Of a stretch of 64,000 nucleotides of DNA, positions 4,440 to 41,170 are shown one piece after another. A program made the translations under genes and the position numbers. Position 1 is the stretch's first letter. The number at the start of each line of letters is the position of its first letter. This stretch comes from an uncultured Polaribacter sp. (GTDB taxonomy: Bacteria > Bacteroidota > Bacteroidia > Flavobacteriales > Flavobacteriaceae), in assembly GCA_943788045.1 (NCBI GenBank), contig CALSOT010000005.1, positions 12,789 through 76,788 on the forward strand, given 5' to 3'. Under the pieces are notes generated by a model. That model saw only the letters and a list, made by a program, of their open reading frames with translations, was not told the origin of the DNA and did no database searches.

Positions 4440-4457
4440 TTTTTATTTCATATTTGT

Positions 4458-5077: not shown

Positions 5078-5133
5078 TTATAATTTAGATTAAAATAGCT
5101 ATCAATAACCAAATAATATAAATACTAACAAAA

Positions 5134-7621: not shown

Positions 7622-7634
7622 TCAATTAAACTCC

Positions 7635-11810: not shown

Positions 11811-11965
11811 AATATATAATTCAATTTTAAAATTAAACACTAAACTTACAAATAAATATATTTATCATTAGCATATATTGACATATGTGATATATTTTAA
11901 CCCATTTAAGCAAAATAGAAATAAATAGTTGCATTAACTTTAAAATGAATTAAATCTTTACTTTG

Positions 11966-14900
11966 ATGATAGACAAAAATAATTTCAAATTAAATAAACA
12001 TTACTTGGCCTTTATGCATTTTGTATTTATAAGCGCACTGCTATTAAGCTTTAAAGTTTCCAGTCAAACCCTAAGTGTCAAGGGAACGGTGCTAAGCGAG
12101 GAAAGTGGCCAACCAATACCAGGGGTTACAGTAATCATAAAAGGAACTACCACTGGTACCTTCACAGATTTTAATGGTCTTTATACAATAAATGCTGCCT
12201 TAGATAATGTTTTAGTATTTAGCTATGTTGGTTTAGAAGAGGTAGAACTTGCGGTTACTAAACCAATACATAATATTTTAATGAAAGAAAATCTTACAGG
12301 TTTAGATGAAATTGTTGTAGTAGGATATGGTACTGCTAAAAAACGCGAACTGACAGGAGCAATTTCTTCAGTAAAGTCTAAAGACATAAATAAAACTGTT
12401 ACTTCAGATTTTGCTACTGCTATTCAAGGAAGAATGGCTGGTGTGAGTGTCAGACAAGGCAATGCTGCTCCTGGAGAAAATGCCAATATTACCATTCGTG
12501 GAATAACATCTTTTCAAGATGGAGGCTCAGGCCCCTTGTATGTTGTTGACGGGGTTACATATATTGAAAATCCAAATATCACCCCTCAAGAAATAGAATC
12601 TATAGAAGTTTTAAAAGATGGTGCTTCGGCGGCAATTTACGGCTCTCGAGCATCTGGAGGTGTGATTTTAATTACTACAAAAAAAGGAAAAGAAGGACAG
12701 ATGAAAGTGAGCTTGGATTCGTATTACGGAGTCCAAAACATTACTTCGGGACTTCCCCTAGCAAATACCTTAGAGGCATTGTATATAAATGATTTACAGT
12801 ATAGGTATGATGAAAATGTTAATTACCCTGATAATTACCCTAACCCGCTTGATCAAAATCCAGATGGATTAGAATACAATACAGATTGGATGAACTTACT
12901 TCAGGTTGATTTAGCGCCTATTCAAAACCACTCTCTTAATGTAAATGGTGGAAAAAATGGATTAACCTACAGCGTGATTGGAACATTTTTTAATCAAACT
13001 GGTGCACTTATTAATTCTGAATATAAAAAGCAATCTTTAAGAAGTAATACAGGTTTTAAAAAAGGTAAATTTACAATACAGGCAAATTTAAGTACGAATT
13101 TTAGTGAGCAAAAAAGAGAACCCTACGGTATCATTTATGATGCAATTAGACTACAACCTTACAGGCCACCTTTTGACATTACTTCAGATGTTTTTCAAAC
13201 CAACTTAGATAATGATGATCAAAATACACAGAGAATTTCAAATTTTGCAGGGAAACTAAAGCAAGAAAGCTCTAATAAAATAAATAATTTTAATGCCAAT
13301 ATACAGCTTGCATATGAAATAGTTGAAGGGCTAACAGCGCGAGCAAATATTGGACGATCCTTTTACAACAAAAAAGATCGATTTTTCCAACCAAGCTTTC
13401 AAGTTTTGAGCGGAAACGGAGAAATTAACCTGGGAGCTAGTAACTTAAATGCGCAACTTAGATTAGGAGATGCCACAAGCACTAGGAGTATAGACGAATT
13501 TACTTTAAACTACACCAAAATCTTTAAAAAACATAATTTTAAATTTTTAATTGGTAACACCTACGAATCTTCTAAATATGAATTTTATAGAACCGGCGCT
13601 AACAATATTACAAGCAACTTCACCCCTGTTCTGGGTAATGGTGATCCCATCGTTGGTACTCAAACCATTAATAAAACAGAAAGTATTTCTTACATAGGGA
13701 GAATTAATTACAATTATAACTGGAAGTATTTTTTAAGTCTGGTAGTTAGAAGAGATGGGTCAAGTAATTTTGGAAATCAAAAGTTCGGAACTTTCCCATC
13801 TATTTCTGCAGGATGGACTTTCTCTAATGAACCTTTTTTTAAAAATTTAAAAAATACTGTATCCATGGCAAAATTGAGACTCGGGTACGGTAACACTGGT
13901 AGTGATAGGATACCACCTTATGGTTATAGTCCTATCGTCATTGCAAATGTAGATTACATATTGGGAGAACAACCTAATTTAATTTCGGGTATGACACAAC
14001 CGGGATATGTTGATCCTAATTTAAAGTGGGAGACTAACATAAGTAAAAACATTGGTTTAGACTTTAAATTTAAAGGTGGTAAAGCTGGGCTCGAAATCGA
14101 TCTTTATGAACAAAACAAGAAAGATATGCTACTTGCAATTACAACACCAATTTCTGCAGGATCAACGCCCGTAAATGGTGAAACCTATGACCGTTTTCTT
14201 ACTAACATAGGTGATTTAAGAAATAGAGGTGTTGAAGTTAGTGCTCATTACAATCACAAATTTGGACCAGTGGGTTTAAAATTTAGTGGAAACTTTACCA
14301 AGAATAAAAATACAGTTGTGAGTCTTTCTAGAGAAGGAGAAATAATCTTTGACGGGTATCCTAATATTATTAGAGTAAATCAAAATGAACCTGTTGCAGT
14401 ACTTGAAGCTGGCCTGCCTGTTGGTGCTTTTAAAGTCTATCAAACCGATGGAACTGTAAAAACAGACCAAGAGTTGGAAATTTATCAACTTTTAGATGCC
14501 AATGCTCGAAAAGGGGACCTAAGATATGTTGATACCGATGGGAACGGGGAGTTAAATAATAATGATAAAGTATATAAAGGGTCCTATCAGCCAGATTTTG
14601 AAATTGGTTTTAATGTAGATGCTAATTACAAGAATTTTGATTTTTCTGTTCAATTCTATGGTGTTAGTGGTAACACTATATATAATGGACAGAAACAATA
14701 TGCTTACAGTACAAAAAGACACAGAGATTTGGTTAACAGTTGGAGCGATGAAAACCCTACATCAAACATACCAACACCGCGGTCAAGTATTGAACACCCT
14801 AATGTAAATACCGCAACAGATTATTTTCTAGAAGATGGTTCCTTTTTAAGATTGCGAAACATTATACTTGGATACTCTTTGCAAAATAATTTACTTGATA

Positions 14901-15076
14901 AAATTGGGATAGAAAATTTCCGAGTTTATATAAACGCCCAGAATGCTATCACCTGGACCAATTACAGTGGATTTGATCCAGAAGTTGGAAGCAGCAATCC
15001 TTTTAACGGAGGGCTAGATAGAGGAAACTACCCAGTAACTGCAACATACAGTGCAGGTATCTCAATTACATTTTAA
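11966..15076 (+). CDS. SusC-like TonB-dependent outer-membrane transporter
   Basis: N-terminal carboxypeptidase-regulatory-like domain (VKGTVLSEESGQPIPGVTVIIKGTTTGTFTDFNGLY), plug region (DEIVVVGYGTAKKRELTGAISSV), about 1035 aa, terminal aromatic residue (SITF). A susD-like gene follows. Confidence 0.9.
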   Translation: MIDKNNFKLNKHYLAFMHFVFISALLLSFKVSSQTLSVKGTVLSEESGQPIPGVTVIIKGTTTGTFTDFNGLYTINAALDNVLVFSYVGLEEVELAVTKPIHNILMKENLTGLDEIVVVGYGTAKKRELTGAISSVKSKDINKTVTSDFATAIQGRMAGVSVRQGNAAPGENANITIRGITSFQDGGSGPLYVVDGVTYIENPNITPQEIESIEVLKDGASAAIYGSRASGGVILITTKKGKEGQMKVSLDSYYGVQNITSGLPLANTLEALYINDLQYRYDENVNYPDNYPNPLDQNPDGLEYNTDWMNLLQVDLAPIQNHSLNVNGGKNGLTYSVIGTFFNQTGALINSEYKKQSLRSNTGFKKGKFTIQANLSTNFSEQKREPYGIIYDAIRLQPYRPPFDITSDVFQTNLDNDDQNTQRISNFAGKLKQESSNKINNFNANIQLAYEIVEGLTARANIGRSFYNKKDRFFQPSFQVLSGNGEINLGASNLNAQLRLGDATSTRSIDEFTLNYTKIFKKHNFKFLIGNTYESSKYEFYRTGANNITSNFTPVLGNGDPIVGTQTINKTESISYIGRINYNYNWKYFLSLVVRRDGSSNFGNQKFGTFPSISAGWTFSNEPFFKNLKNTVSMAKLRLGYGNTGSDRIPPYGYSPIVIANVDYILGEQPNLISGMTQPGYVDPNLKWETNISKNIGLDFKFKGGKAGLEIDLYEQNKKDMLLAITTPISAGSTPVNGETYDRFLTNIGDLRNRGVEVSAHYNHKFGPVGLKFSGNFTKNKNTVVSLSREGEIIFDGYPNIIRVNQNEPVAVLEAGLPVGAFKVYQTDGTVKTDQELEIYQLLDANARKGDLRYVDTDGNGELNNNDKVYKGSYQPDFEIGFNVDANYKNFDFSVQFYGVSGNTIYNGQKQYAYSTKRHRDLVNSWSDENPTSNIPTPRSSIEHPNVNTATDYFLEDGSFLRLRNIILGYSLQNNLLDKIGIENFRVYINAQNAITWTNYSGFDPEVGSSNPFNGGLDRGNYPVTATYSAGISITF

Positions 15077-15096
15077 TTCTTTATAATTCTAGAAAA

Positions 15097-16740
15097 ATGA
15101 AACGAAATAAATTATATTTAGTACTAATAACTTCTATCGCTTTGCTATGCAGCTGTAGTTATGATCAATTAAATATTGAAAACCCTAATAATCTTCCTTT
15201 AAATAATTTTTGGAATTCAGAAGAGGATATTCAAAAAGGTTTAATAGCAACTTATGCAGCTCTGCAATTAGATGGATTACTTGGTGGGGCTAGCTCAACA
15301 CAACATCCTGTAAGGTCTGACATAGGAAGGCCAAACAATTGGAATGCAAACGCCCAAGGATTAAGCAGATTAGCTTTTAATGAAAACTCAGATATCGTTA
15401 AAAAGCGATGGAGAGATTGTTATATAGGTGTTTTTCGTGCTAACCAAGTGATAGCCAATTTATACACTATAGATTTAAGTGAGCAGACTAGAACTCAAAT
15501 AGAAGCAGAAGCTAAGTTTTTGAGAGGATTTTTTTACTACTCTTTGTACCGCGGTTACAATGGAGGTAGTGTAATAATACACACAACTCCACCACAGTCT
15601 AGTGAAGATTTTTATAAATCACCATCACCTGCCAGTGAGGTATTTAACTTAATCAAATCCGATTTAGAATTTGCTTACACTAATTTACCCCAGCAATATG
15701 AAAATAGTCAAGATTTAGGTAGAGCTACATGGGGTGCAGCTACAGCAATGCTCGGGAAATTACATATTAATGCCCGTGATTATGATCTCGCGAAAATGAA
15801 ATTCAAAGAAATTCTTGAAAGTAACTTGTATAGTCTTACAGCCAACATTGGAGATAATTTTGATGAAGAGCATGAAATGAATAGTGAATCAATTTTTGAA
15901 GTTGCATTTTCTACTGAATTTAGTCAAGGCACCTCTGGCAGTGCAGCAGATGGACCCCTTGGCTCAGAAGCCACATCAAGAGCAAGAACGTTAGCACCAG
16001 ATGAAGGCGGTGGCTATAGAACCATCATGCCATCATACCACATGACCATGCTATTTAAAAAAGACACTATGGATATAACAAATCCAATTAATAGCAATAG
16101 AACAGGTGCTGCTAATTACTCTATTAGAACTTCTATGTCAATAGCCATCGCAGACGACGACAATACTACAATATACCAAATACCATCAGAAAGTTTGCGA
16201 TATAATAATAATGAAGCCTCTTATTTAAAAAAATTCCAAAACTGGACACTTTTAAGAGAAAGTGATCAATCTATTTCTGGAATTAATGAACGTGTGATAA
16301 GACTCGCTGATGTTATGTTACTCTATGCAGAATGTATTCTTCAAACAGGGGGGGCATATACTGAAGCATTAGATTTAATTAATGAAATTAGATACAGGGC
16401 AGGAGTTGTGTTACTAGAGCCAGTAGATTATGATAATAGCAGTACAATGGAACACATTATGTGGGTAGAACGGCCACTTGAACTAATGTTTGAAGGACTC
16501 GACACTCGTTGGGAAGACTTGACAAGATGGGATAAAGTTCAGGAACAATATGATCGTTTGGCATTAAAAAGTTATGTTCTTGTTTCTAAAAACTTGTACG
16601 AATTTGACCCTGCTATTCACAATGAAGATAGAAAGCTCATAGAGTTTGAAAGTGCAGCAACATCTTACCAGAGTGCTATACACAACTATTTTCCAATTCC
16701 ATCAACGGAACAGAATTCGAATCCAGATCTTTTCAACTAA
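15097..16740 (+). CDS. SusD/RagB-family glycan-binding lipoprotein
   Basis: Lipoprotein signal (LLCSCSYD) and position immediately after susC-like. SusD-like features: RGFFYYSLYRGY, RLADVMLLYAEC, YFPIPSTEQNSNP. Confidence 0.85.
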   Translation: MKRNKLYLVLITSIALLCSCSYDQLNIENPNNLPLNNFWNSEEDIQKGLIATYAALQLDGLLGGASSTQHPVRSDIGRPNNWNANAQGLSRLAFNENSDIVKKRWRDCYIGVFRANQVIANLYTIDLSEQTRTQIEAEAKFLRGFFYYSLYRGYNGGSVIIHTTPPQSSEDFYKSPSPASEVFNLIKSDLEFAYTNLPQQYENSQDLGRATWGAATAMLGKLHINARDYDLAKMKFKEILESNLYSLTANIGDNFDEEHEMNSESIFEVAFSTEFSQGTSGSAADGPLGSEATSRARTLAPDEGGGYRTIMPSYHMTMLFKKDTMDITNPINSNRTGAANYSIRTSMSIAIADDDNTTIYQIPSESLRYNNNEASYLKKFQNWTLLRESDQSISGINERVIRLADVMLLYAECILQTGGAYTEALDLINEIRYRAGVVLLEPVDYDNSSTMEHIMWVERPLELMFEGLDTRWEDLTRWDKVQEQYDRLALKSYVLVSKNLYEFDPAIHNEDRKLIEFESAATSYQSAIHNYFPIPSTEQNSNPDLFN

Positions 16741-16778
16741 AAATATTTTTTTACAAAAAACATATAAAATAAAATATT

Positions 16779-18266
16779 ATGAAAATACCCATCAACAAAA
16801 TAGCAATTATAAGTTTTGTATTATTTGGAGTCATTGCTTGTCAAAAGGACGATGCGATTCCGGAATACAACAATTTCTCAGATGCGCTGGCCACTAATGG
16901 AGATAAAAGAATTCAAAGAGACGATTTTGCTTCCTTTGCGGATTTATCCAAGGGTGTAACCAATAGAACTTGGACCATTCCAGAATCAGCTTCCATAATT
17001 AATCTTGAAGGAAGAGACCCCTCTCAAGTTGAACTTGTCCAAGTACAGTTTGATGAACTCGGTCAGTTTGAAGTGAATTTGAAAGATGAATTTATAGATT
17101 CTACTGTACAACTCGATACAACTTTCAATGTGACGGTTCTAGATTTCATTCAAACAAATTTTGATGTGTTGTCTATTGAATCTAGTTTTCAAGAAGAAAC
17201 GCCAACACAAATAACAATATATGAAGGCGGCACCATTACATTTCAAGACGTTTCACAAGGGAGTCCCAACCGACGAAAATGGACATTTCCAGGAGGCGAT
17301 CCGTCATCAGCGGGTGGAATTAGTATTGATTATGACAAAGATTTTCAAAATATAGCAGTCTCCTATCCAACAATAGGAACCTATGATGTTTCGCTTGTTA
17401 CTTGGCGTCAGTATCCAGAGGGAAGTAAGGATACATTGCATCTAAAAGACTACATCAATGTTATAGAAAATATTGATCCACCAACCCTAACCCAGATTAC
17501 AGAAAGTGATGCAGGCGTGATTCATTTAAATTATAATTTACCTCTAAAATTGACAGCTGATCTTGTCCCTCATTTAACCCTTACTGTAGATGGTATTAAA
17601 ACAGACATTTTGAGCGCTGCTATTAACTTAGATGACAATCGAATTGTGGACATTACTACTACTGAAAATATTAAAAGTAACTCTGTAGCGTCATTGTCCT
17701 ATGATAATTCAGAGGGAGTATTGGTGCGAGTAAACGATGTAGTTGCTGAATCCTTTACAGACCAACCTGTTGAATTGTTTGTGTCATTAAATCTTGCTAA
17801 CTCTAGCATTTACGGATTTGAAGATGGTGGAGCTGGATGGATGGCCGCCTCAGATAATGTAGGCGAAATAAGCTTTACAGACCAAAAGGCAGCCTCAGGT
17901 AATTACAGCATGCGTATGGAAGCCACAGAAAATGCCAAATGGACGAGATCTTGGAGTTGGAAAGAGGGTTCTGAATTCACCTTGAAAGCTGGGCAAAAGG
18001 TTACCATTGAATTCAAAATTTGGATAGACCCCTCTTACACCGATGGTAGTATTGGACCATGGATTACCGGCACAGAAGCACCATACCCAGGTACACAATT
18101 CTGGACTGGCATGAGCGGTTTACCTCGAGGCGAATGGATAACCATAAATAAAGAAACTGCTAAGGTATGGACAGTTACTGCGGATGGAGATTATTTTGTT
18201 GCGTTTAGATTTCAGAAAAAAGGAATTATTTACATAGACGATGTTAAAGTCTATATTCCGGAATAA
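16779..18266 (+). CDS. Surface lipoprotein with a PKD-like domain and a C-terminal CBM-like domain (candidate SGBP)
   Basis: Lipobox FGVIACQKDD. PKD-type motif ITFQDVSQGSPNRRKWTFPGGDPSS...GTYDVSLV. C-terminal beta-sandwich-like end GFEDGGAGW...YIDDVKVY. It sits in the position typical of surface glycan-binding proteins after susD. Confidence 0.55.
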   Translation: MKIPINKIAIISFVLFGVIACQKDDAIPEYNNFSDALATNGDKRIQRDDFASFADLSKGVTNRTWTIPESASIINLEGRDPSQVELVQVQFDELGQFEVNLKDEFIDSTVQLDTTFNVTVLDFIQTNFDVLSIESSFQEETPTQITIYEGGTITFQDVSQGSPNRRKWTFPGGDPSSAGGISIDYDKDFQNIAVSYPTIGTYDVSLVTWRQYPEGSKDTLHLKDYINVIENIDPPTLTQITESDAGVIHLNYNLPLKLTADLVPHLTLTVDGIKTDILSAAINLDDNRIVDITTTENIKSNSVASLSYDNSEGVLVRVNDVVAESFTDQPVELFVSLNLANSSIYGFEDGGAGWMAASDNVGEISFTDQKAASGNYSMRMEATENAKWTRSWSWKEGSEFTLKAGQKVTIEFKIWIDPSYTDGSIGPWITGTEAPYPGTQFWTGMSGLPRGEWITINKETAKVWTVTADGDYFVAFRFQKKGIIYIDDVKVYIPE

Positions 18267-18357
18267 GTGATTTTTTGTCACTTTTAGTTCATTTTGAAAG
18301 CAATAAAAAAATTATGAAGAAAACTAGTATATAATAAATTTAAAAAAAATCTTATAA

Positions 18358-20172
18358 GTGAATTTTAAACTTAAAATTTATATTACTACATTATTTTTGG
18401 CCATGGTTAATGGTTTGAACGCTCAGGTAAATGTCGTACTGGTTGAGCCTACTGTTCAAAAGTTTATTGGGGAGGTTTCTGAGCTAGATCGATCAAAATA
18501 TTTTAATATCCACGCCCCAGGTAAAACACCATTACTTGAATCATTTTATAAAGAATATAACGTAGAGCAATCAGGAAGAGGGTTTTACGGGCCTGGAATA
18601 GACGCCAAAAAATTGATGGGAGAAGTTGGTGTTTATCCCAAATTTAATGGTAAAAAAAGTGACAAATCGTTAGCTGTGACACGTTATGTTGCTACAGAGC
18701 ACCCGCGAAACCTATATAAAGAAGGTATCAACTTAGAGGCATCGTCAAATTGGGCAGTCAACTATTTTAAAAATACAAAAAAAAGTAACAGGCCATTATG
18801 GTATGAACCGATGAACGAACCATTTGTTCATGCTAAAGACTTTTACGAAGAAAAAGATTGGGATCCTGTTGCAGAATTACGGGTTAAAACAGAAATGTCA
18901 AAGCTATTTAGAGCTCTGGCAGAAAAAATCCATGCAGAACCAAGCTTAAAAAATATTAAGGTAATGGGTTACAGCGCTGCATGGCCATCTTTTGAATTAA
19001 AAGATTTTCAAAATTGGAAAACAAATATGGGCCTTTTTTTAGATATTGCCGGTGATCAACTCGATGCAATTTCCTACCATCTTTATGATGGGATCAATCA
19101 AGTTGGGCAGGAAAACAAGCGCTCAGGAAGTAACAACGAAGCAATAATGGATCTCATTGAAACTTACAGTCACCAGCGTTGGGGATTTATTAAACCTCAT
19201 GCGATTACAGAATATGGTGGAATCGAGGTTTCTGAATTTTCCTTAATTCGAAATATGCAATCAATTCGATCTCAAAACGCCATGATTTTTGGTTTGCTGG
19301 ACCGTGAAGATCGACTAGAAATTTCCATCCCATTCACAACAGATAATGCCAAATGGCACATTAATAAAGCAAATAATTATTTACCATATAAAGCCGTTCT
19401 ATGGCGTGCAGAAAATATGGGTGTGCCAAAAAATCAAATTACAGGTTGGGTATATACTAATCGAATTCAATTTTATGAACTTTGGAAAGGGGTCAAAGGA
19501 AAAAGAGTTTTCGTTTCAACATCAAACCCTGATATTCAAGTCCAAGCCTTTTTGGATGAAAAAAAAATATTTGTTGCACTAAATAACTTGGACGATAATG
19601 CTCAACAAGTTGCATTAGATCTTAGCTCTATAAAATCTAACGTTAAAGATATATTGGTAAAGTCATTAACTATTTACAAGGAGGATTTTCCTCGATATTA
19701 TGAAAAAACTGTCAGCAGTATCCCTGAAGTATTTTCTATAGATTCTGCAGAGACAATAGTTCTAGAATTTAATTTAAAAAATAGTATGACATTCAAAAAC
19801 CAAATTAAATCCAAACGCTACTACAGTAGTAATTACTTAGTCCCAATTGAAGCTAATAATGAGTTGATATTTGAATTTAATAATGTTGCCCTTGGAGTTG
19901 GTTTTGCCAAACTAAGTATGAGTATAGGTAGGGGGCATGATTTGTCAAAAACTCCTGAAGTTTTTGTTAATGGCAGTAAAGTTGAAGTTCCTTTGAACTG
20001 GAAAGGGTATGACCAAGCTAATAGAAAAAAATTCTTTGGGGCTATAGAAATTCCTGTTCCCATAGAATTAATTAAACAAAATAATTCCGTTCGTGTTACT
20101 TTTCCAGATACTGGTGGGCATTTAAGTTCTCTAATTTTAGATGTGGAAAAAATTATTGATACTAATAATTGA
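18358..20172 (+). CDS. Secreted (beta/alpha)8-type glycoside hydrolase with C-terminal beta-sandwich region, family unassigned
   Basis: Signal peptide NFKLKIYITTLFLAMVNGLNAQ (apparent GTG start). Clan GH-A-like acid/base motif WYEPMNEPF and nucleophile-like motif AITEYGG. Roughly 60% identical by eye to the catalytic core of the next gene. Confidence 0.6.
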   Translation: MNFKLKIYITTLFLAMVNGLNAQVNVVLVEPTVQKFIGEVSELDRSKYFNIHAPGKTPLLESFYKEYNVEQSGRGFYGPGIDAKKLMGEVGVYPKFNGKKSDKSLAVTRYVATEHPRNLYKEGINLEASSNWAVNYFKNTKKSNRPLWYEPMNEPFVHAKDFYEEKDWDPVAELRVKTEMSKLFRALAEKIHAEPSLKNIKVMGYSAAWPSFELKDFQNWKTNMGLFLDIAGDQLDAISYHLYDGINQVGQENKRSGSNNEAIMDLIETYSHQRWGFIKPHAITEYGGIEVSEFSLIRNMQSIRSQNAMIFGLLDREDRLEISIPFTTDNAKWHINKANNYLPYKAVLWRAENMGVPKNQITGWVYTNRIQFYELWKGVKGKRVFVSTSNPDIQVQAFLDEKKIFVALNNLDDNAQQVALDLSSIKSNVKDILVKSLTIYKEDFPRYYEKTVSSIPEVFSIDSAETIVLEFNLKNSMTFKNQIKSKRYYSSNYLVPIEANNELIFEFNNVALGVGFAKLSMSIGRGHDLSKTPEVFVNGSKVEVPLNWKGYDQANRKKFFGAIEIPVPIELIKQNNSVRVTFPDTGGHLSSLILDVEKIIDTNN

Positions 20173-20182
20173 AAATATAGAT

Positions 20183-23100
20183 ATGTTAAGAATTCTTCAA
20201 GTTATTCAAATAGTAGTTTTTATCATTTGTGTTAATTCGATTCAAGGGCAAAATGTCAATTTTATATCCGATGAGGGGTTTACTAACGGAGCGCTTTCCG
20301 GTCAAACTAATTGGGATGCCCAATCAGGATGGTCAGTTGAAGCAGCCACAGGGGTAGTAACGACAACGCAGTGGTGGCAAAAAGCGGCCTGGGGACAGCC
20401 ATTTTCCCTTTCTGAAGTTGGCGATCAAATAACGTTTAGAGTAGATTTAAATCTTACTGGAACTCTAGCTGCAACAAACAATCCATTAATCAGAATTGGC
20501 TTTATTGCTTCAAGTGATGTTAACGCCAATCTATCAACAATGTTAAATACTGTTTATTTATCTAGCACAAATGGTGGTCTACTTCAACTTCGTGACAATA
20601 CGAATAGTAATCCCTTAAGTTTAGGGACTTCTTTAACAATTTTGGAATGTCAAGGAAGTGAAACAACAGATGATTTGGCGCTTTTGGTAACCCTTACACT
20701 TGGCATAGATGCAGCATCTTCAACAATATCTGCAAAGCTTCTTAATGTAACTGATGGCACTTCATCAAGTATTGGCCACTACAATGGAATAAAGACGGAT
20801 GTATTTAATGCTTCAACAAGCAGTATTTACGGATTTTTTCAAGCTCAATCTTTTACAAGTGGTAGTGATCTCACAGCCATAAATGTAAAAAAAGTTAGCA
20901 TGATTTCAAAAGTAGATATCTTTCCAAAAGTCAAGCGAGAAATTGGAGGGATTTCAACTTTAGATCGTAGTAAATATTTTAATATTCATGCAGGTGTTAA
21001 TGATGTAGAACCGGATTTTTATACAGATTATAATGTGAGTCAAAGTGGACGACAATTTTATGGACCAGGTGGATTTAACGTGCTCGACACTATTAGCCCA
21101 GGAGCTGTTGGCACAGGAACTGTTGGCACATACCCAGAATCAAGTCCTGAAAATAATACAACATTGCGCGAAGTTAGAAGATATGTAGCCACTGATCATC
21201 CTTATCACGTCTATGAAGAAGGGCTTGATCCTGTAGCATTTGCTGATTGGGCGGTAGAGTATTATAAAAATTTTGCAACTACTGACTCAAGACCTGAATA
21301 TTACGAGCCAATGAACGAGCCTTTCGTTCATGCAAGAGACTATTATGATGAACCGGACTTTGATACTGATGCAGAGGCAAGGGTAAAGCTAGAAATGGCT
21401 CAATTTTTTAAGCATGTTGCGCAAAAAATTCATGCCGCTCCAGAATTAGATAATATGAAAATACTTGGTTATTCTTCGGCATTTCCATCTTTTGAAATAA
21501 CTGATTTTTCTAATTGGAATCAAAACATGAAAATGTTTATGGATGAAGCTGGGGCTGATGTTGATATTTTTTCAACACATCTTTACGATGGAATTAATCA
21601 GGTTGGGCAAGAAACCCGAAGATCTGGCAGTAATATGGAAGCCATTCTAGATTTGATTGAAACCTATAGTTATGATAAGTGGGGGCTTATTAAACCACAT
21701 GGCATTACTGAATTTGGAGGAATTGTAAATGGAGATTATACTGATATCAATAACGTTCAGTCTATACGTTCTCAAAATTCGATACTTTTTGGACTTTTGG
21801 AACGAACCGATCGAATGGAAATTGCTATCCCATTTACTACTGGAAAATCCACATGGCATATCAAACAAGACACTATTGAAATGCCATATCATATGCCATA
21901 TAAAGCTATACTATACAAGCCAATCCCAATTGGGGTGCCTTTAGACCAAGTTACAGGTTGGGAATATACCAACAGAATTCATTTTTATGAATTATGGAAA
22001 GATGTTGCTGGAGAGAGAGTATTGATTCGTTCAGGTAATAAGGACGTTCTCGCTCAGGCATTTGCAAATAACGATAAATTATATGTGGCCTTTAACAATT
22101 TAGATGATTTTGATCAGTCCGTTAACCTAAAATTACATGGAAACCTTCCTGAAATTTCGAATGTTGTAATTAAATCTTTAATCGTTAATCCAGGTGTCGA
22201 TGCAGTTTATACAACTCAATCTTTTACAGAATTACAGGAAAGCTACACACTCAAAAAAAATGAAACGGTAGTAATAGAATATACTTTTTCGGAGTCACTT
22301 GTTTTTGATAAAACCATCGAGTCTGTAAATTATTATAGTAATAACCATTTGCAGGAAATCCAGGCAAATACCCCAATTGTTTATAATTTCAATGGTGTGA
22401 CCCTAGGAAATTCTGGATATGCAAAACTTTCTATGAGTATTGGTCGAACACATGATAAATCTAAATCACCCACTGTTTTATTTAATAATATATCAATTCC
22501 TGTACCAATTAATTGGAAAGGGTATGACCAAGCATCAAGAGCTACTTTTTTTGGAACTATAGAAATCTCCGTTCCAATAGGTCTCCTTAACGAAAATAAT
22601 ACAGTTTCAATTACGTTTGCAGATACTGGAGGGCATTTGAGCTCTTTAATACTCAATGCAGAAACATCAGACGCGAATGTTTTATCAGATATTACTTGGG
22701 ATGGTAGTGATAGTTCAGAGTGGGCAGCTGCTGCAAACTGGGATATTAACACAGTTCCATCTGCAACTGACAATGTTATTATTCCTGATGTTGCTACCGC
22801 ACCAATTATTGGAGCAACAACTGGAGCTGAAATTAATAATTTAACAATTACAGAACCAGATGGTATTAATATCACTGCAGGCGGTTCTTTAATAGTAAAT
22901 GGTTCTTCTTCAGGAAATATAACTTATAATAGAACTTTAGACACAGACAACTGGTATTTAGTTTCATCACCTATTGTGGGAGAAATGTATGATGATGCTT
23001 ATGTAACTGATAATGGTATTGATTTAGGAGCAGACTCTAACAGAGGAATTGCATCTTATATAACCAGTGATGACACTTGGGATTATATGCAGGCAGGGGA

Positions 23101-24187
23101 AACTGCTACTTTTTTAGCTGGAATAGGATATTCGATTAAAAGAAGTTCTGTCGGAGATGTTTCTTTTACAGGTACATTAAATGTTGCTGATACTGGAGTA
23201 GATGTAGTTCTCGATGCTACTGGAAATCGTTATAACCTTTTAGGAAATCCTTATTCGTCTCACATTGCTAGTGCAACTTTTTTGACTAATGAAGCTGCTG
23301 TTTCAGAAACACAAACCCTGTGGGTATGGAATCAAGTAACAGGTGCTAGTGGAGCCTATGAAGTAAAAACGTTAGCAGATGCTATGGTAATAGCTCCTGC
23401 ACAAGGATTTTTTATAAAAGCAAATGCGGCTGGAGGCACATTTAACTTTGCTGAATCTAACCAAGCTGGCAGTGGAGGGACCTTTCAAAGAACTGAAGCT
23501 AGACCAGAGATGCATCTTACACTATCTAATCAATCAGATGTAAGAGAGGCTAAAATCTATTATATAGAAAACATGACCACTGGATTTGATGTTGGTTATG
23601 AAGGAGAATTATTTAATGGAGTTGCTAATCCTCTAGATATTTACACGCATTTAGTAGCTGATAGTGAAGGGAAAAATTATCAAGTGCAATCCTTACCAGA
23701 TAATGATTTTGAGGACACGATTATTCCTTTAGGAATTAATGCAATTTCTGGAAGTTCTATTTCTATAGAAGCTTCAAAAAATAACTTCCCTGAAGGAATG
23801 AATATTTATCTAGAAGACAAACAAGACAATAGTTTTACTCTTTTAGAGTCAGATGTTAATTTTAACACTACACTTGAGAATGATCTTTCTGGAATTGGAC
23901 GTTTTTACTTGCATACTACTTCAAGTACTATGAGTACCAATGATTTGGCAACAAACAATAATTTGAGTATTTACTCCTATAATAGAGAAACCCTTCGAGT
24001 TGTGGGTATTCAAAAAGGAGTTGCAAATATTAGTATTTACAATTTACTTGGACAAAAAGTGTTAAGTTCTTCATTTCAAGGAAATGGAGTGAATGATATT
24101 TCATTACCATCTATAATTAATGGAATTTACATCGCAAAAATCACTTCAGAAAACAGAACAACTAACAGGAAAATAATCTTAGAATAA
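20183..24187 (+). CDS. Large T9SS-sorted multidomain glycoside hydrolase (N-domain, GH core, ~430-aa module, CTD)
   Basis: Signal peptide MLRILQVIQIVVFIICVNSIQGQ. The N-terminal ~250-aa domain is shared with the genes at 25832 and 28395. The GH core (YYEPMNEPF, GITEFGG) is paralogous to 18358..20172. The C-terminal module is shared with 25832..28139. A T9SS type-A CTD-like tail ends the protein (ISIYNLLGQKVL...NGIYIAKITSENRTTNRKIILE). Confidence 0.75.
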   Translation: MLRILQVIQIVVFIICVNSIQGQNVNFISDEGFTNGALSGQTNWDAQSGWSVEAATGVVTTTQWWQKAAWGQPFSLSEVGDQITFRVDLNLTGTLAATNNPLIRIGFIASSDVNANLSTMLNTVYLSSTNGGLLQLRDNTNSNPLSLGTSLTILECQGSETTDDLALLVTLTLGIDAASSTISAKLLNVTDGTSSSIGHYNGIKTDVFNASTSSIYGFFQAQSFTSGSDLTAINVKKVSMISKVDIFPKVKREIGGISTLDRSKYFNIHAGVNDVEPDFYTDYNVSQSGRQFYGPGGFNVLDTISPGAVGTGTVGTYPESSPENNTTLREVRRYVATDHPYHVYEEGLDPVAFADWAVEYYKNFATTDSRPEYYEPMNEPFVHARDYYDEPDFDTDAEARVKLEMAQFFKHVAQKIHAAPELDNMKILGYSSAFPSFEITDFSNWNQNMKMFMDEAGADVDIFSTHLYDGINQVGQETRRSGSNMEAILDLIETYSYDKWGLIKPHGITEFGGIVNGDYTDINNVQSIRSQNSILFGLLERTDRMEIAIPFTTGKSTWHIKQDTIEMPYHMPYKAILYKPIPIGVPLDQVTGWEYTNRIHFYELWKDVAGERVLIRSGNKDVLAQAFANNDKLYVAFNNLDDFDQSVNLKLHGNLPEISNVVIKSLIVNPGVDAVYTTQSFTELQESYTLKKNETVVIEYTFSESLVFDKTIESVNYYSNNHLQEIQANTPIVYNFNGVTLGNSGYAKLSMSIGRTHDKSKSPTVLFNNISIPVPINWKGYDQASRATFFGTIEISVPIGLLNENNTVSITFADTGGHLSSLILNAETSDANVLSDITWDGSDSSEWAAAANWDINTVPSATDNVIIPDVATAPIIGATTGAEINNLTITEPDGINITAGGSLIVNGSSSGNITYNRTLDTDNWYLVSSPIVGEMYDDAYVTDNGIDLGADSNRGIASYITSDDTWDYMQAGETATFLAGIGYSIKRSSVGDVSFTGTLNVADTGVDVVLDATGNRYNLLGNPYSSHIASATFLTNEAAVSETQTLWVWNQVTGASGAYEVKTLADAMVIAPAQGFFIKANAAGGTFNFAESNQAGSGGTFQRTEARPEMHLTLSNQSDVREAKIYYIENMTTGFDVGYEGELFNGVANPLDIYTHLVADSEGKNYQVQSLPDNDFEDTIIPLGINAISGSSISIEASKNNFPEGMNIYLEDKQDNSFTLLESDVNFNTTLENDLSGIGRFYLHTTSSTMSTNDLATNNNLSIYSYNRETLRVVGIQKGVANISIYNLLGQKVLSSSFQGNGVNDISLPSIINGIYIAKITSENRTTNRKIILE

Positions 24188-24314
24188 ATAACGAGAACTT
24201 ACAAAGAATAATATTTATAAAAACGAAACGGTAGTGATGAAATACACTTTTATGGTAAAATTGTTAACGCTACAATTCAGCCAATCATCAAAAACTAAGA
24301 AAATTTTCAAAAAG

Positions 24315-25721
24315 ATGTTTTTAAAATCTTTCTATGCTTTTACCTACATTTTTTTTAGTGTACAAATTGTATGTGCTCAAAAGTACGTGTCTAAAATTTT
24401 CGAAAATGGAAATACCATTTGTCTCCTAGGAGACAGCATTACCCACGGAGGGCAGTTTCATGAATTCCTACAACTCTATTACGCCACTCGCTATCCAAAT
24501 CTAAAACTCACTTTTATAAATTGTGGAATCGCTGGAGATAATGCCGAAGGTATGATCTACAGATTAGATAAAGACGTCCTTATTCATGAGCCAAGTCATG
24601 TGTTTTTAATGACCGGTATGAATGATGTAATACGGACACTTTATTTTGAAGGTAAAGCTTCGGATGAAATTATAGAAAAGCGAAAAATTGCACTGTTTGA
24701 ATACAAAAAAAACACAGACGTTTTAGCAGAAAAATTTGAAGCATCAGGAATATCTCCAATCTATCTTACCCCATCAATTTACGATCAATACTCGAAAATT
24801 GAAAAAGAAAATGACTTAGGTTGCAATGATGCTCTTATTGAATGTTCTGACCACATTAAATCAATTGCATATCAGTATGATGCAACCGTTGTTGATTTAA
24901 ATACCCCAATGAAGAACATTATGGAGCGAGAACTACAAAACGATTCCTTATTTACAATTGTTGGTAAGGACCGAGTACACCCAGAAACAACAGGACATTT
25001 TATTATGTTTTATGAAATTTTATCAACGATAGAATCACCAAGTCTTGTAGCTCAAATTTCAATTGACCTGCATCAAAAACCAAGTGTTCAAACAAAAAAC
25101 TGCGTTGTTGAGAAATTTCAAATTTCAAATGAAACTATTACTTTTAATTGTTTAGAAAACAGCCTACCATTCCCTATTAATGAAGCTATAGAAAAAGCTA
25201 TTTCTTTGGTTCCTTTTCAAAACAATTTCAACAAAGAAATACTTCAAATTAAAGGGCTAAAAGAGGGTGAATATGATCTTTTTATTCAGGAAAAATTAAT
25301 AAATACTTTTTCTAGTAAGGAGCTAAATGAAGGTGTCAATCTTTCAAATCAATTGAATAGCCCGCAATTACAACAAGCCAAAAAAATTACGAAACTTTGT
25401 AAAGAGTATCGCAAGACAGGCTATCAATTACGAGCAGTTCCGCTTATTGAGTTCAAATACCTTCGCGACTACCGAGGTGCTAACAATCTTTTGGGTAAAC
25501 AAAAGCATTTAGAAAAAAAGTTGAAAATAATTGAAGGAAAACCGTTTTACAATTATATCAAAAGGAGTATTGATGTGTATTTTGAAACACTTCCTAAACA
25601 GGACTCATTAAAAAATAGACTACAATTAATTGAAAACTCTATTTATGAAGAAAATAAACCGACTCAACTAAAATGGCGTCTTGTAAAAAACATGAAACAG
25701 AGTTCTTATCAAAAAATGTAG
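24315..25721 (+). CDS. SGNH/GDSL-family hydrolase (putative carbohydrate esterase) with C-terminal extension
   Basis: Signal peptide MFLKSFYAFTYIFFSVQIVCAQ. SGNH blocks ICLLGDSITHGG, MTGMNDV and DRVHP. Confidence 0.7.
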   Translation: MFLKSFYAFTYIFFSVQIVCAQKYVSKIFENGNTICLLGDSITHGGQFHEFLQLYYATRYPNLKLTFINCGIAGDNAEGMIYRLDKDVLIHEPSHVFLMTGMNDVIRTLYFEGKASDEIIEKRKIALFEYKKNTDVLAEKFEASGISPIYLTPSIYDQYSKIEKENDLGCNDALIECSDHIKSIAYQYDATVVDLNTPMKNIMERELQNDSLFTIVGKDRVHPETTGHFIMFYEILSTIESPSLVAQISIDLHQKPSVQTKNCVVEKFQISNETITFNCLENSLPFPINEAIEKAISLVPFQNNFNKEILQIKGLKEGEYDLFIQEKLINTFSSKELNEGVNLSNQLNSPQLQQAKKITKLCKEYRKTGYQLRAVPLIEFKYLRDYRGANNLLGKQKHLEKKLKIIEGKPFYNYIKRSIDVYFETLPKQDSLKNRLQLIENSIYEENKPTQLKWRLVKNMKQSSYQKM

Positions 25722-25831
25722 TATAAATCAGAATATTTAAGATGTTTTTTACATATGTAATATAAATCAGAACATATATGGAACTTCTTTAACTGCGTCA
25801 TTCTTAATTTTATGTGACAAACAAACAAATT

Positions 25832-28139
25832 ATGAAAAAAATTTACACACTATTATTTTTTACCATAACCACAAGTTTTTTAACTGCTCAAACTACAGCA
25901 AATTTTTCTACTGCAGAAGGGTATACCAATGGTTTACTTAGCAACAACACAAACTGGGGTGGCCAGTTTATTTATGTTAACACGACCAATGAAAGTGTAT
26001 CCACTCAGTCCAACGGCGCTGAGGCTTATTGGGGGCAGTCTCAATCAATAACAGAGGGTGAAACAATTACTTTTGAAGTTGATATGAAATTTGGAGGCGA
26101 TCTTGGATATATAGCTAATACATTTATTGCTCAAATTGGTTTTAATGCTGGAGGGACTACTTCTTCAGGGGGTAGCGACAGACAATTTATTTACTCTAAA
26201 AGCACTGACTAACGGTAAACTAAAAATTGAAAGGCGTGCGGGGGGTAACCTATCATCCACACCTACTTATGTTGAGGGCTGGGATATTGATACTTGGAAA
26301 AATGATGATTTGACTGTTAAAGTATCTTTTTTATTGGGTAATAGTGCATCAAGCTCTACAGTAACCGTAAAGCTAATCAATAATACAACTGGAGAATATA
26401 CTGATGCTGCATTTGACCAAAATGGGGTTGTTAGTACAAGTGTTTACGATGGAGCTGTTAATGGTAATTTATATGGTTTTTTTAGAACAGTAACTCTTCA
26501 AGATGGTGATGGTGATACTACCGAAAGTTTTGCGGTATCACGCGTAAAATTGGTAAACGAAGATACATTGTTTCCAAACACTTTCTATAATACTAGTGGA
26601 GACAATCAGTGGGGAACTGCAACTAATTGGGAATCGGGTAATGTGCCAACATCATATACTGATGTTAATATTTTAAATGGTCAATCAATTCAAGCTGGAG
26701 TTTCTACAACAGCTTTAGCCAATAGTATTGTTGTTAATAGTGGAGGTAGTCTAACTATAGATCAAACATCATCTGTAACAGTTTCAGATGATTTCAACAA
26801 CAATGGAACTGTTACATTAAACTCAGGCGGTTCTTTAATAGTAAATGGTACTTCTTCAGGAAACGTAACTTACAACAGAGATTTAGCCACTACTAATTGG
26901 TATTTAGTTTCATCACCTGTTGTGGGAGAAACGTATGATGATGCTTATGTGACTGCCAATGGTATAGCTTCAGGGACACAAAACACGAACTCTAGAGGAA
27001 TTGCACCATATGTAACTACTGATGATTCTTGGGATTATATGCTGGCAGGAGAAACTGCCACTTTTTCTGCTGGAACAGGATATTCCGTTAAGAGAAGTTC
27101 TACCGGAGATGTTTCTTTTACAGGAACACTAAATGTTGATAATGCCGGTGTTGATGTTGTTCTTTCTTCTGATGGAAATCGTTTTAATCTTTTAGGAAAT
27201 CCTTACACATCACATATTGCAAGTGCAACTTTTTTAGCTAATGAAGGTGCTGTTTCAGAAACACAAACACTCTGGGTTTGGGATCAAGGTTCAGGTTCTG
27301 GAGCTTATGAAGTAAAAACACTTGCAGATGCTATGGTAATCGCTCCTGCTCAAGGATTTTTTGTAAAAGCAAATGCCGCTGGCGGTACCTTTAACTTTGC
27401 TGAATCTAACCAAGCTAGTAGTGGAGGTTCTTTTCAAAGAACTGATACTAGACCAGAGATATATTTAACAATCTCTGATCAAACAGATGCTAGAGAAGCT
27501 AAAATATATTATATAGAAGACATGACCACTGGATTTGATGTGGGTTATGAGGGAGAATTATTTAATGGGGTCTCTAATCCGTTGGCGATTTACACCCATT
27601 TGGTTGCTGATAGTGAAGGAAAGAATTACCAAGTACAATCTTTACCTCCCAACAACTATGAAAACATGATTGTTCCTTTAGGAATTAATGCTGAAGCTGG
27701 AACTGCCATTACCATAAATGCATCTGCAAACAACTTCCCTTCAGATATAAACATTTATCTAGAAGACAAACAAGACAATAGTTTTACTTTGTTAGAAGCA
27801 GATTCAAACTTTAGCTTTACACCAGAGAATAATCTTGACGGTATTGGACGTTTTTACTTGCATACCACATCTGGAGCTTTAAGTTCGGATGACTTCGCTA
27901 TAAACAATAACATCAGTATGTATACCTCTAGTAATGATAATATAAGAATTGTTGGTATACAGAATGGTAACGCTACTGTTCAATTGTATACTATTCTAGG
28001 GAAAGAGATCTTAAAAAACTCTTTTACAGGAAGCGGTATCAATGACATCAAAGTAAATGATATCCCTAGAGGCATTTATATTGTAAAACTTACTACAGAA
28101 AACGGGACGCTAAACAGAAAAATCATCATTCAATACTAG
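25832..28139 (+). pseudogene. T9SS-sorted non-catalytic paralog (N-domain, shared module, CTD), frameshifted in a G5 run
   Basis: Two overlapping ORFs (25814..26212 and 26127..28139) form one gene by homology to the paralogs. Removing one G from GGGGG at 26168-26172 gives ...TSSGVATDNLFTLKALTNGKLKI..., aligning with ...NTVYLSSTNGGLLQL... of the 20183 gene. CTD tail VQLYTILGKEIL...GIYIVKLTTENGTLNRKIIIQY. Confidence 0.7.
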
Positions 28140-28153
28140 AAATCTATAAACAC

Positions 28154-28324
28154 ATGGAACATCAAAAAAAAAAACAAAAAGAAGAGATTTCAAGAAAAAA
28201 GGCTCTTAAAAAAATTGGAAACTATGGTAAATATGCGGCTTTAACTGCCATAGGTACTTATACGTTATTAAATCCTAAAAAAGCACAAGCAATGAGTCCT
28301 GCAGATCCCGGCAGCGGATTTTAA
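28154..28324 (+). CDS. Small 56-aa ORF with a basic N-terminus, one hydrophobic segment and a short C-terminal peptide (hypothetical)
   Basis: My own translation is MEHQKKKQKEEISRKKALKKIGNYGKYAALTAIGTYTLLNPKKAQAMSPADPGSGF. It is below the track length cutoff and fills the gap between two T9SS paralogs. It contains an A11 run (28164-28174). The coding status is unproven. Confidence 0.3.
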   Translation: MEHQKKKQKEEISRKKALKKIGNYGKYAALTAIGTYTLLNPKKAQAMSPADPGSGF

Positions 28325-28394
28325 TTAGCTATTTAACACGGTGTCTAATGAATAACTTTTAAATTCACTAATTTTAAAATTAAATACAAAAATT

Positions 28395-29414
28395 ATGAAA
28401 AAAATTTACATGCTAATATTTTTTACCATAACCACAAGTTTTTTAACTGCTCAAACTACAGTAAACTTTACTGAAGATGAGGGGTTTACGTCCGGAGTAT
28501 TATACAATCAAACAAATTGGGACTCTCAGTTTACCGGAACCACATGGACTGTTAATCCATCGGCAGCAGGTATGACTTTAGTTGGCGCTAATCCTGTCAA
28601 CCCTGGTGATGGTGAATACCAAAGGGCAGCTTGGGAGCAGGGTTTTTCAGTCTCTGGTCCTGGTGAGTCAATTACCTTTAGAGTTGATCTTAAGTTTTTA
28701 GGTACTATTGGTACCAGTAACAACCCACTTATGAAAATTGGTTTTAGTGATGGTGCTGATGTAAGTGGAGGTGATACCCCCTTCCCAACAAACAATGGTG
28801 TTTTTTTAAGAACGGCCAATTTTGAGGGCCAACTACAACTTGGAAATAATGGGAATGGTGGTCCATTATCTCCAAATGCATCCCTTCCAATAGCCGATTG
28901 CCAAGCTGTCGGTGAGTCAGATGATTTGGCAGTACTAGTTACTTTGACGCTTGGCGCTGATGCGACAAGTTCGACAATTAGTGCAATATTAAAAAACTTA
29001 ACAGATGGAACAAAAACTGATATTGGTTCATATGAAAGTATAGAACCTTTGTTATTTACGGCAGCAACAAGTAATATTTACGGTTATTTTCAGAGTTCAA
29101 GTTTTAAAACTACAGCAGGTGGCGGAGCATTAACAGAAATTCAAGTTAGTTCGGTAACTATGACAGCAGGAAATGTACTAAATACAGATTCATATTCCAT
29201 TTCTAATTTTAACTTTTCTCAAAACCCTGTTGAGGATACCTTGCAGCTGAGAGGGGTCACTACAGGAAGTAAAATTTCTGTTTATAACGTTACTGGAGCT
29301 TTAGTAAATAATTATGTTTATGATGGTAATCAATTAAACTTAGGACATCTAAGTTCTGGAGTTTACTTTATGCAAGTGCCGGGTTTTACAACTCAAAAAC
29401 TAATAAAGAAATAA
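28395..29414 (+). CDS. T9SS-sorted protein made of the shared N-domain plus CTD only
   Basis: The signal peptide MKKIYMLIFFTITTSFLTAQT is nearly identical to that of 25832. The N-domain is homologous to the N-terminus of 20183 (DDLAVLVTLTLGADATSSTISAILKNLTDGT vs DDLALLVTLTLGIDAASSTISAKLLNVTDGT). CTD tail KISVYNVTGALV...GVYFMQV. Confidence 0.7.
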   Translation: MKKIYMLIFFTITTSFLTAQTTVNFTEDEGFTSGVLYNQTNWDSQFTGTTWTVNPSAAGMTLVGANPVNPGDGEYQRAAWEQGFSVSGPGESITFRVDLKFLGTIGTSNNPLMKIGFSDGADVSGGDTPFPTNNGVFLRTANFEGQLQLGNNGNGGPLSPNASLPIADCQAVGESDDLAVLVTLTLGADATSSTISAILKNLTDGTKTDIGSYESIEPLLFTAATSNIYGYFQSSSFKTTAGGGALTEIQVSSVTMTAGNVLNTDSYSISNFNFSQNPVEDTLQLRGVTTGSKISVYNVTGALVNNYVYDGNQLNLGHLSSGVYFMQVPGFTTQKLIKK

Positions 29415-29501
29415 TACCAACTAATAAAATTAAAACCTTTAAGATCAAAGTCACCGTAATTCGGTGGTTTTGTCTGTTTTACGCTATTTATTAAAATCAA
29501 T

Positions 29502-31945: not shown

Positions 31946-31962
31946 CTTATTGTAATTTATTA

Positions 31963-33066: not shown

Positions 33067-33452
33067 TTCTTATTTGATGTTTTCAATCCAAATAAAGCAA
33101 TATATATATAAAACACAAAGCAAAAAAACCAAAATGCTTCACTGATTGCAGCTGGATAAAACATCAGTGCACCTGAAGAATACAACCCAAGTCCTATTAA
33201 AATACCTACTTTATAGGAATACTTTCGCATAAATAGTGCTGCAGGGATTGCCATACAAAAGTAGCCTCCATAAAAGGCCATTTGAACCCATGCGGCTTGA
33301 GAATTAGATAATTCCAATACTTTTTTAAAGGCTTGTACCATGGGATCTGTAACTGCATTGGCAAAACCCCATAAAGCAAATAAAGAGGTTATTAGAATAA
33401 ATGGTATTATAACCTTTTTTGTTACTACCGGCATTGATACTGAATGTTTCAT
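33063..33452 (-). pseudogene. fucP: L-fucose:H+ symporter (FucP-type MFS) N-terminal fragment
   Basis: The 129 aa align by eye with the first ~125 residues of E. coli FucP (IIPFxLxxSLFxLWxxAN...QxAFYxGYFxxxIPAxxxMxKxSYKxGIxxGLxLY). The remaining ~300 aa are absent. The stop overlaps the start of the esterase gene. Confidence 0.75.
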
Positions 33453-33455
33453 AAT

Positions 33456-34772: not shown

Positions 34773-34790
34773 AATATGGTATCTATATGA

Positions 34791-35936: not shown

Positions 35937-35942
35937 ATGTTT

Positions 35943-37261: not shown

Positions 37262-37267
37262 TTATTT

Positions 37268-38053: not shown

Positions 38054-38063
38054 ATATCTAAAT

Positions 38064-41151: not shown

Positions 41152-41170
41152 ATGGTTTTTTATTTAATAG

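Follow-up and report, generated by a model that had tools for sequence, protein, structure and literature searches.

What polysaccharide do the tandem glycoside hydrolase genes GH86a and GH86b degrade? The question is raised by a 64,000-nucleotide stretch of an uncultured Polaribacter sp. genome (GCA_943788045.1, contig CALSOT010000005.1, positions 12,789 to 76,788 of the forward strand; hereafter the window), where both genes lie within a polysaccharide utilization locus (PUL). An earlier note, made from the nucleotide sequence of the window, had described their products as clan GH-A-like hydrolases of unassigned family and as the only candidates for the endo-acting enzyme of a fucose-oriented PUL. 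Both proteins are members of family GH86, and we hold it to be somewhat more probable than the opposite that they are conserved, duplicated retaining endo-β-galactanases of the BpGH86A branch, which would perform the depolymerising step of a PUL of bloom-associated flavobacteria on a porphyran-like, fucose-bearing galactan. New here are further GH86 members; the family and the GH29-GH86 PUL type in metagenome-assembled genomes (MAGs) from blooms are already known.

The two adjacent plus-strand open reading frames (ORFs), of 604 and 1348 aa, carry both glutamate motifs as claimed: YEPMNEPF and ITE[YF]GG occur in GH86a (P0001) with Glu154 and Glu285 and in GH86b (P0002) with Glu393 and Glu524, and the two proteins share 51% identity across 590 aa. 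The interval 18358-22676 given for them holds insofar as both genes are real, but 22676 marks the end of the GH86b core and the gene itself reaches 24187. Its product thus has 1348 rather than about 845 residues, with about 235 extra N-terminal residues preceding the core. Translation of GH86b probably starts at Met15 (20183) and not at the ORF start 20141, so that the overlap with GH86a disappears. A scan for sigma-70 promoters gave chance-level results (72 sites vs 72.7 expected).

Compared with all PDB sequences, GH86a matches the β-porphyranase BpGH86A of Bacteroides (Phocaeicola) plebeius (4AW7) over residues 28-599 (E=1.3e-136) and the GH86b core matches the same entry (E=6e-128), while the GH86 agarases Aga86A_Wa (8H97) and BuGH86 of Bacteroides uniformis NP1 (5TA0/5TA1) rank behind it (E 1e-76 to 1e-90). 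Pfam identifies PF18206 and PF18040 (Porphyrn_cat_1 and BPA_C) in both proteins with E-values of 1e-22 to 2e-30, in GH86a at residues 392-494 and 505-596, respectively. These two β-sandwich domains were defined on β-porphyranase A and account for the C-terminal β-sandwich region of about 200 aa noticed before. The AlphaFold2 model of GH86a (predicted local distance difference test, pLDDT, 84) was compared by Foldseek with 4AW7 (template modelling, TM, scores 0.86/0.91, 42% identity) and with the GH86 agarases (TM ~0.8, 26-32% identity); the next fold families GH30, GH51 and GH44 follow far below the GH86 structures. Pfam and the model together describe GH86a as a (β/α)8 barrel followed by two Ig-like β-sandwich domains. 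NCBIfam yielded no model for the GH86 core, the tail of the type IX secretion system (T9SS) in GH86b being the sole match. Because Pfam, PDB sequence matches and AlphaFold2/Foldseek agree on GH86, the description as an unassigned family is refuted; GH86 was the first family that the earlier note had named. The closest characterised enzyme, porphyran-cleaving BpGH86A, is at the same time a confident match with a substrate unrelated to fucose glycans, which likewise tells against the family claim, whereas the proposed clan GH-A retaining TIM-barrel architecture agrees with the GH86 placement.

Residue conservation was judged from an alignment of 72 GH86 cores drawn from 56 genome loci, which had been gathered by scanning prokaryotes at one genome per species. 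Both glutamates, the Asn of the NEP motif, His241, Tyr243 and Trp333 are invariant (72/72), so the two catalytic glutamates had been named correctly and neither is lost in any of these homologs. The position opposite Glu285 of GH86a is the very one at which the two BuGH86 PDB sequences (5TA1 and 5TA0) differ, with E in one and Q in the other; the Q-bearing entry 5TA0 is titled BuGH86 E322Q, and E322 is the residue replaced in the nucleophile mutant (Pluvinage et al., PMC5849685). A clan GH-A double displacement is proposed, in which Glu154/Glu393 act as the acid/base and Glu285/Glu524 act as the nucleophile.

The surroundings of the pair are conserved as well. Sixteen of the 56 loci (L001-L016) show the order HTCS-SusC-SusD-lipoprotein-GH86a-GH86b-GDSL-X protein-BD-FAE-S1_15 (HTCS, hybrid two-component sensor/regulator) at 53-95% identity, and their hosts are planktonic Flavobacteriaceae, represented by MAGs and single cells with labels such as Formosa, Polaribacter and "Ulvibacter". 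These PUL neighbours are missing from all of the macroalga-associated loci (≤52% identity), and no esterase was found beside GH86 in the macroalgal GH86 loci. A tree was built from uncharacterised homologs, without BpGH86A, BuGH86 and Aga86A_Wa, and was given an arbitrary root at its most divergent row. In it, 15 rows of GH86a orthologs form one monophyletic group and 15 rows of GH86b orthologs another, and the two groups are sisters (SH-aLRT branch support 99-100), which points to one duplication with retention of both copies. Both clades are nested among macroalgal Bacteroidota sequences, with a long stem branch (0.38) leading to the GH86a clade. Three other genomes (G001, G002 and G003) carry a UxaA-type fucose cluster at a distance of 15-18 kb downstream from GH86a. 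In marine metagenomes about 50 clusters of the planktonic clade are found at ≥80% identity. One of the sixteen loci, L003 (CAXPPN010000044.1), is a 10-kb contig with a flavobacterial PUL (GH86a 85%, SusC/SusD) in a MAG labelled Aeromicrobium (Actinomycetota), a label that is almost certainly a binning error.

The specificity of GH86 enzymes for porphyran or agarose has been put down mainly to subsite -2, and the -1 subsite is reported to be identical in the GH86 agarase and porphyranase (Pluvinage et al., PMC5849685). In BpGH86A, whose subsite residues are taken here as described in the same work, subsite -2 contains Phe77, which accommodates the kinked α-L-galactose-6-sulfate (L-Gal6S), and a sulfate pocket with Ser326 at its base; in BuGH86, Thr82 and Met396 take part instead (PMC5849685). 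The equivalent of Phe77 is Phe76 in GH86a and Phe306 in GH86b and is present in 71/72 homologs, and the equivalent of His114 in the -3 subsite is kept in both window proteins. Since the -2 Phe and the -3 His are retained, both proteins are, as far as these positions tell, porphyranase-like and not agarase-like. The putative Ser326 (PFVSD in 4AW7; PDB and paper numbering are ambiguous by one residue) is replaced by Thr328 in GH86a and Thr567 in GH86b. As Thr occupies this position in 68/72 sequences, including macroalgal homologs, it probably does not discriminate. Met396 of BuGH86 is not the sequence equivalent of Ser326 and could not be mapped by alignment. GH86a and GH86b share with BpGH86A the family, the three-domain layout, the catalytic glutamate pair, the -2 Phe and the -3 His, and with BuGH86 and Aga86A_Wa the fold and the catalytic machinery, but the N-terminal ~145 residues of GH86a do not align in sequence with the two agarases. 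Different from BpGH86A and from 39 macroalgal homologs, both planktonic clades have in common a 4-residue deletion right after the nucleophile strand as well as V248Q and S299N, changes that are compatible with altered subsites but do not prove them. Across planktonic and macroalgal sequences 70 columns are invariant, including the surroundings of both catalytic glutamates and the Phe and His subsite residues.

The locus qualifies as a PUL, since it combines neighbouring SusC and SusD genes with a sensor and carbohydrate-active enzymes (Table 1). All other ORFs of ≥150 aa within 3006..39734 are assigned to exo-enzyme, esterase, sulfatase, transport, sensor, catabolic or lectin-like T9SS functions, which leaves the GH86 pair as the sole endo-glycanase candidates, as proposed. 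Of the context described earlier, the two GH29 enzymes and the esterases stand, but the PUL contains a single sulfatase and the fucose cluster is partly deleted. GH29a and GH29b share 33% identity and are both remote from the exo-α-L-galactosidase BpGH29 (7LJJ; 7e-29 and 4e-27, respectively), and GH29b keeps the nucleophile Asp, the acid/base Glu and the hydrophobic C6-pocket Phe/Trp of TfFuc1. The sulfatase keeps the formylglycine motif CTPSR and, in common with BT1624 (7OZC), an Asp-Arg/His triad; this triad recognises D-galacto-configured 6-sulfated sugars (Luis et al.), and an exo D-galactose(NAc)-6-O-sulfatase is predicted. The window GH2 matches 5T98, the GH2 of the B. uniformis agarose PUL. 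The fucose cluster remnant comprises a fucP fragment, the interleaved GH29b, an FMN-dependent dehydrogenase, a broken lactonase, an FAH-family hydrolase, a short-chain dehydrogenase/reductase (SDR) and a UxaA-type dehydratase.

Table 1. Features of the GH86 locus in window coordinates
Feature	Position	Strand	Evidence or remark
GH86a (P0001)	18358..20172	+	604 aa, GTG start
Glu154 codon of GH86a, proposed acid/base in N-E-P	18817..18819	+	aligned to BpGH86A NEP
Glu285 codon of GH86a, proposed nucleophile in ITEYGG	19210..19212	+	opposite BuGH86 E322Q
GH86b (P0002)	20141..24187	+	ORF of 1348 aa; probable start 20183
X domain of GH86b	20246..20908	+	residues 36-256; legume-lectin/ConA-like β-sandwich
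GH86 core of GH86b	20897..22676	+	residues 253-845
Glu393 codon of GH86b	21317-21319	+	
Glu524 codon of GH86b	21710-21712	+	
Y module of GH86b	22697..23980	+	residues 853-1280
T9SS C-terminal sorting domain (CTD) of GH86b	23984..24181	+	TIGR04183 E=9e-10, PF18962
GH29a, predicted GH29A-type α-L-fucosidase	3006..4439	+	aLfuk1 6GN6 E=4e-113
GH2, predicted β-galactosidase, frameshifted	5134..7621	+	5T98 E=8e-285
HTCS	7635..11840	-	Reg_prop, Y_Y_Y, HisKA, HATPase_c, Response_reg, HTH_18
SusC	11963..15076	+	Pfam
SusD	15097..16740	+	Pfam
495-aa lipoprotein, probable surface glycan-binding protein	16779..18266	+	N-terminal lipobox
GDSL/SGNH esterase	24234..25721	+	PF00657, PF13472; adjoins GH86b in L001-L016
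X+Y+CTD T9SS protein	25814..28139	+	frame change at G5 run 26168-26172
X+CTD T9SS protein	28395..29414	+	
α/β-hydrolase esterase, BD-FAE type	29502..30413	+	PF20434 E=3e-18; syntenic
S1_15 sulfatase	30410..31945	-	7OZC E=7e-191
CE2 acetyl esterase	31963..33066	-	PF17996 CE2_N + SGNH
GH29b, predicted GH29A-type α-L-fucosidase	33456..34772	-	TfFuc1 9EU2 E=1e-127
Remnant non-phosphorylative L-fucose (or L-galactose) cluster	33063..39734	-	Pfam and intact G001/G003 clusters

With its GH29A type, S1_15 sulfatase, three esterases and fucose pathway this accessory set is unlike that of canonical porphyran loci. PUL-PorB of B. plebeius (SusC/D, GH2, GH16, S1_11, GH29) likewise combines an endo-enzyme with an exo α-L-glycosidase, an exo-sulfatase and a β-galactosidase, but the accessory enzymes of the window all fall into other subfamilies, whose known specificities differ, and esterases and the fucose pathway are added. 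Instead of BpGH29, S1_11, GH16 and GH117, the genomic partners of BpGH86A, the window genes are accompanied by GH29A, S1_15 and esterases; the porphyran-type S1_11 L-Gal-6-sulfatase and BpGH29-type exo-α-L-galactosidase were not matched in the PUL. In the macroalgal comparator Wenyingzhuangia aestuarii, the GH29 directly upstream of GH86 is BpGH29-type (2.7e-108). A canonical porphyran exo-cascade (S1_11, BpGH29 and GH2) was considered for the locus and rejected in view of the GH29A and S1_15 types and the Wenyingzhuangia comparison. Furthermore, no cytochrome P450 for 6-O-methyl-galactose was found in the whole genome, and no GH117-like, GH50-like or anhydrogalactose genes were found among the assigned PUL ORFs, the GH117 search not being extended to the rest of the genome.

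The two copies differ in their predicted localisation. GH86a carries a signal peptide that lacks a lipobox Cys and would be the periplasmic copy, a placement based solely on its having neither lipobox nor CTD. GH86b is predicted to be the cell-surface, T9SS-secreted copy and consists of a signal peptide and four parts, namely the X domain (taken broadly, about residues 20-256), the GH86 core, the Y module and the T9SS tail. The X domain matches no Pfam family, but its AlphaFold2 model (pLDDT 94.3, predicted TM score 0.92) has legume lectins as top Foldseek matches (E ~5e-8, TM 0.55-0.60), and on this model it is probably a carbohydrate-binding module. It is common to GH86b, to the X+CTD protein and to 25814..26212 of the X+Y+CTD protein. 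The Y module has 64% aa identity to 26127..28139; at the nucleotide level the copies are 80% identical across 1147 bp, with 22878-24018 of GH86b corresponding to the last ~1.15 kb of the 25814-28139 gene. Since the GH86b orthologs in 14 related loci have only ~915 aa (X, core and CTD) and miss the Y module, it is by this comparison a recent addition to GH86b. Protein-atlas feature searches with X and Y returned DUF and hypothetical clusters (for Y, T9SS hypotheticals) at scores reachable by shuffled sequences and were not used.

In the proposed working of the PUL, T9SS-exported GH86b would hold the polymer at the cell surface by its lectin-like N-terminal domain and cut it to oligosaccharides, which SusC/SusD would bring into the periplasm for further cutting by GH86a with its plain signal peptide. 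The three esterases (GDSL, BD-FAE and CE2) would strip O-acyl groups, the GH29A fucosidases take off α-L-fucose, the S1_15 sulfatase remove 6-sulfate from D-galactose and the GH2 release β-D-galactose, while L-fucose would be broken down by the attached oxidative pathway. The likeliest substrate would be a porphyran-like galactan with β-D-Gal at subsite -1 and an α-L sugar at -2, most likely lightly 6-sulfated on D-Gal, O-acetylated and fucose-bearing, and derived from phytoplankton rather than being classical red-algal porphyran. Such a backbone could, for example, alternate β-D-Gal and α-L-Fuc and so be isosteric with porphyran. To our knowledge, the recorded activities of GH86 are confined to those of agarases and porphyranases on galactans of red macroalgae, and neither a GH86 enzyme with a non-agar substrate nor GH86 subfamilies were found in the literature. 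Endo-cleavage of an O-acetylated, D-Gal-6-sulfated, L-fucose-containing phytoplankton galactan would be a specificity unrecorded for GH86, a proposal that we make tentatively and rate a little below an even chance; a new specificity of the pair, as envisaged in the earlier note, is plausible but unproven.

Several observations weigh against this favoured explanation. The fucose pathway and FucP could also handle L-galactose, as what is known of the Xanthomonas-type pathway and of E. coli FucP suggests. BpGH86A, the nearest characterised enzyme, is a true porphyranase, the Phe77 and His114 positions are unchanged and the Ser326 position is Thr nearly everywhere, so that no known determinant sets the planktonic clade apart. 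The periplasmic step depends on a placement of GH86a that was read from the absent lipobox and CTD alone. In this strain the PUL may no longer work as a unit, given a frameshift in the GH2 and the loss of fucP, the lactonase, the mutarotase and one SDR. Finally, "putative porphyran (GH29-GH86)" PULs have already been described in the Aurantivirga MAGs C_MB100 and AB_MB169 and in related MAGs from North Sea blooms (Sidhu et al. 2023, PMC10108472), and these are of the same PUL type as that of the window: C_MB100 corresponds to locus L013 (GH86a 89%, GH86b 91%) and AB_MB380 to L015. There the substrate is predicted by family names, to which the present analysis adds GH29 and sulfatase subfamilies, esterases, the tandem duplication and modular T9SS proteins.

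Alternatively, the pair would be ordinary β-porphyranases (EC 3.2.1.178) acting on genuine porphyran or agaran shed from red algae, with the GH29s as α-L-galactosidases and the pathway consuming L-galactose, which we consider unlikely, though it is the best of the alternatives and a serious one. BpGH86A as best characterised relative, the retained Phe77 and His114 equivalents and the published label (PMC10108472) fit this explanation, as does a GH2 very near to that of the B. uniformis agarose PUL. The canonical porphyran core likewise joins GH2, GH29, sulfatase and endo-porphyranase, but here the GH29s are of GH29A fucosidase type, with the hydrophobic C6 pocket intact and far from BpGH29, and the sulfatase is an S1_15 enzyme with the D-galacto triad, not an S1_11 L-Gal6S sulfatase. 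Degradation of porphyran offers no role for three conserved esterases, the genome is devoid of the P450 for 6-O-methyl-galactose, and the hosts are small-genome planktonic bacteria.

It is improbable that the GH86 scaffold was recruited to a non-agaran backbone, e.g. a fucan or another β-linked phytoplankton glycan. The dominance of fucose genes in the PUL, the clade-specific changes beside the nucleophile and the long GH86a stem branch would suit such a shift, but the 70 invariant columns comprise the catalytic surroundings and the Phe/His subsite residues, and the PUL has kept a BuGH2-type β-galactosidase and a Gal-6-sulfatase, from which it is argued that β-D-galactose remains a backbone sugar. 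That the pair are β-agarases (EC 3.2.1.81) on neutral agarose is highly improbable: although most characterised GH86 enzymes are agarases and 8H97 and 5TA0/5TA1 are the next-best matches, identity is 26-32% to these and 42% to the porphyranase, the agarase alignments start only at residue ~146, the -2 subsite has the porphyranase Phe rather than the Thr of BuGH86, and no GH117-like or GH50-like gene occurs among the assigned PUL ORFs.

The hosts of the planktonic GH86 clade are small-genome flavobacteria that bloom with microalgae, and marine metagenomes commonly contain the clade. Should the substrate be other than porphyran, PUL predictions for blooms that equate GH86 with porphyran or agar would mislabel a different algal polysaccharide, one that the enzymes could then serve to detect and dissect, and the widespread "putative porphyran" PUL would mark an undescribed bloom glycan. 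If it is porphyran, the result is an ordinary one. The family question is settled either way.

Both GH86 genes are full length in this genome, whereas parts of their surroundings have decayed. A one-base frameshift near 5420 divides the GH2 gene in two (5134-5424 / 5282-7621), its lipoprotein signal and first ~95 residues lying in the other frame; the G003 ortholog is continuous, and there is no long homopolymer at this position. Only 129 aa of fucP remain (33063-33452), cut off where it meets the CE2 gene; the Amidohydro_2 lactonase (35943-36410) is broken, and the neighbouring rhaM-type mutarotase and the SDR of G001 (L060 5345-6490) are deleted. An intact second fucP and lactonase are located ~185 kb away (G000:C5:231-234 kb; G000 denotes this genome) beside many sulfatases. 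The genome (2.9 Mb) contains 49 Sulfatase (PF00884) matches, yet one sulfatase in the PUL, and is that of a sulfated-glycan specialist.

The whole 38.5-kb PUL is flanked by a 60-nt direct repeat (2454-2513 and 41009-41068; 92% identical). The right copy adjoins the 3' end of tRNA-Leu (tRNA-Leu/Gly at 41065-41242), and a tyrosine integrase (619-1776) and tRNA-Asp (2116-2190) are situated just outside the left copy. The GC content is 34.5% in the PUL and 30.9% in the housekeeping part of the window, and the PUL may reside on an integrated island. SusC, SusD, HTCS, GH29a and GH2 have 90-95% identity to G003, and the FMN-dependent dehydrogenase, the FAH-family hydrolase, the SDR and GH29b 93-98% to G001, but DnaG, trigger factor and PNPase of these two genomes have just 53-84% identity to those of the window. 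G006 is closest by housekeeping genes (70-88%), yet its SusC/SusD/HTCS reach 75-83%. This comparison of identities shows a mosaic ancestry of the PUL, apparently by horizontal exchange. The window further contains, close to its right end and on the minus strand, an S15-Flavobacteria ribosomal protein leader (Rfam RF03161, 77 bits) at 60149-60214, flanked by the PNPase gene (57405-59705) and the next annotated ORF (60307-61164).

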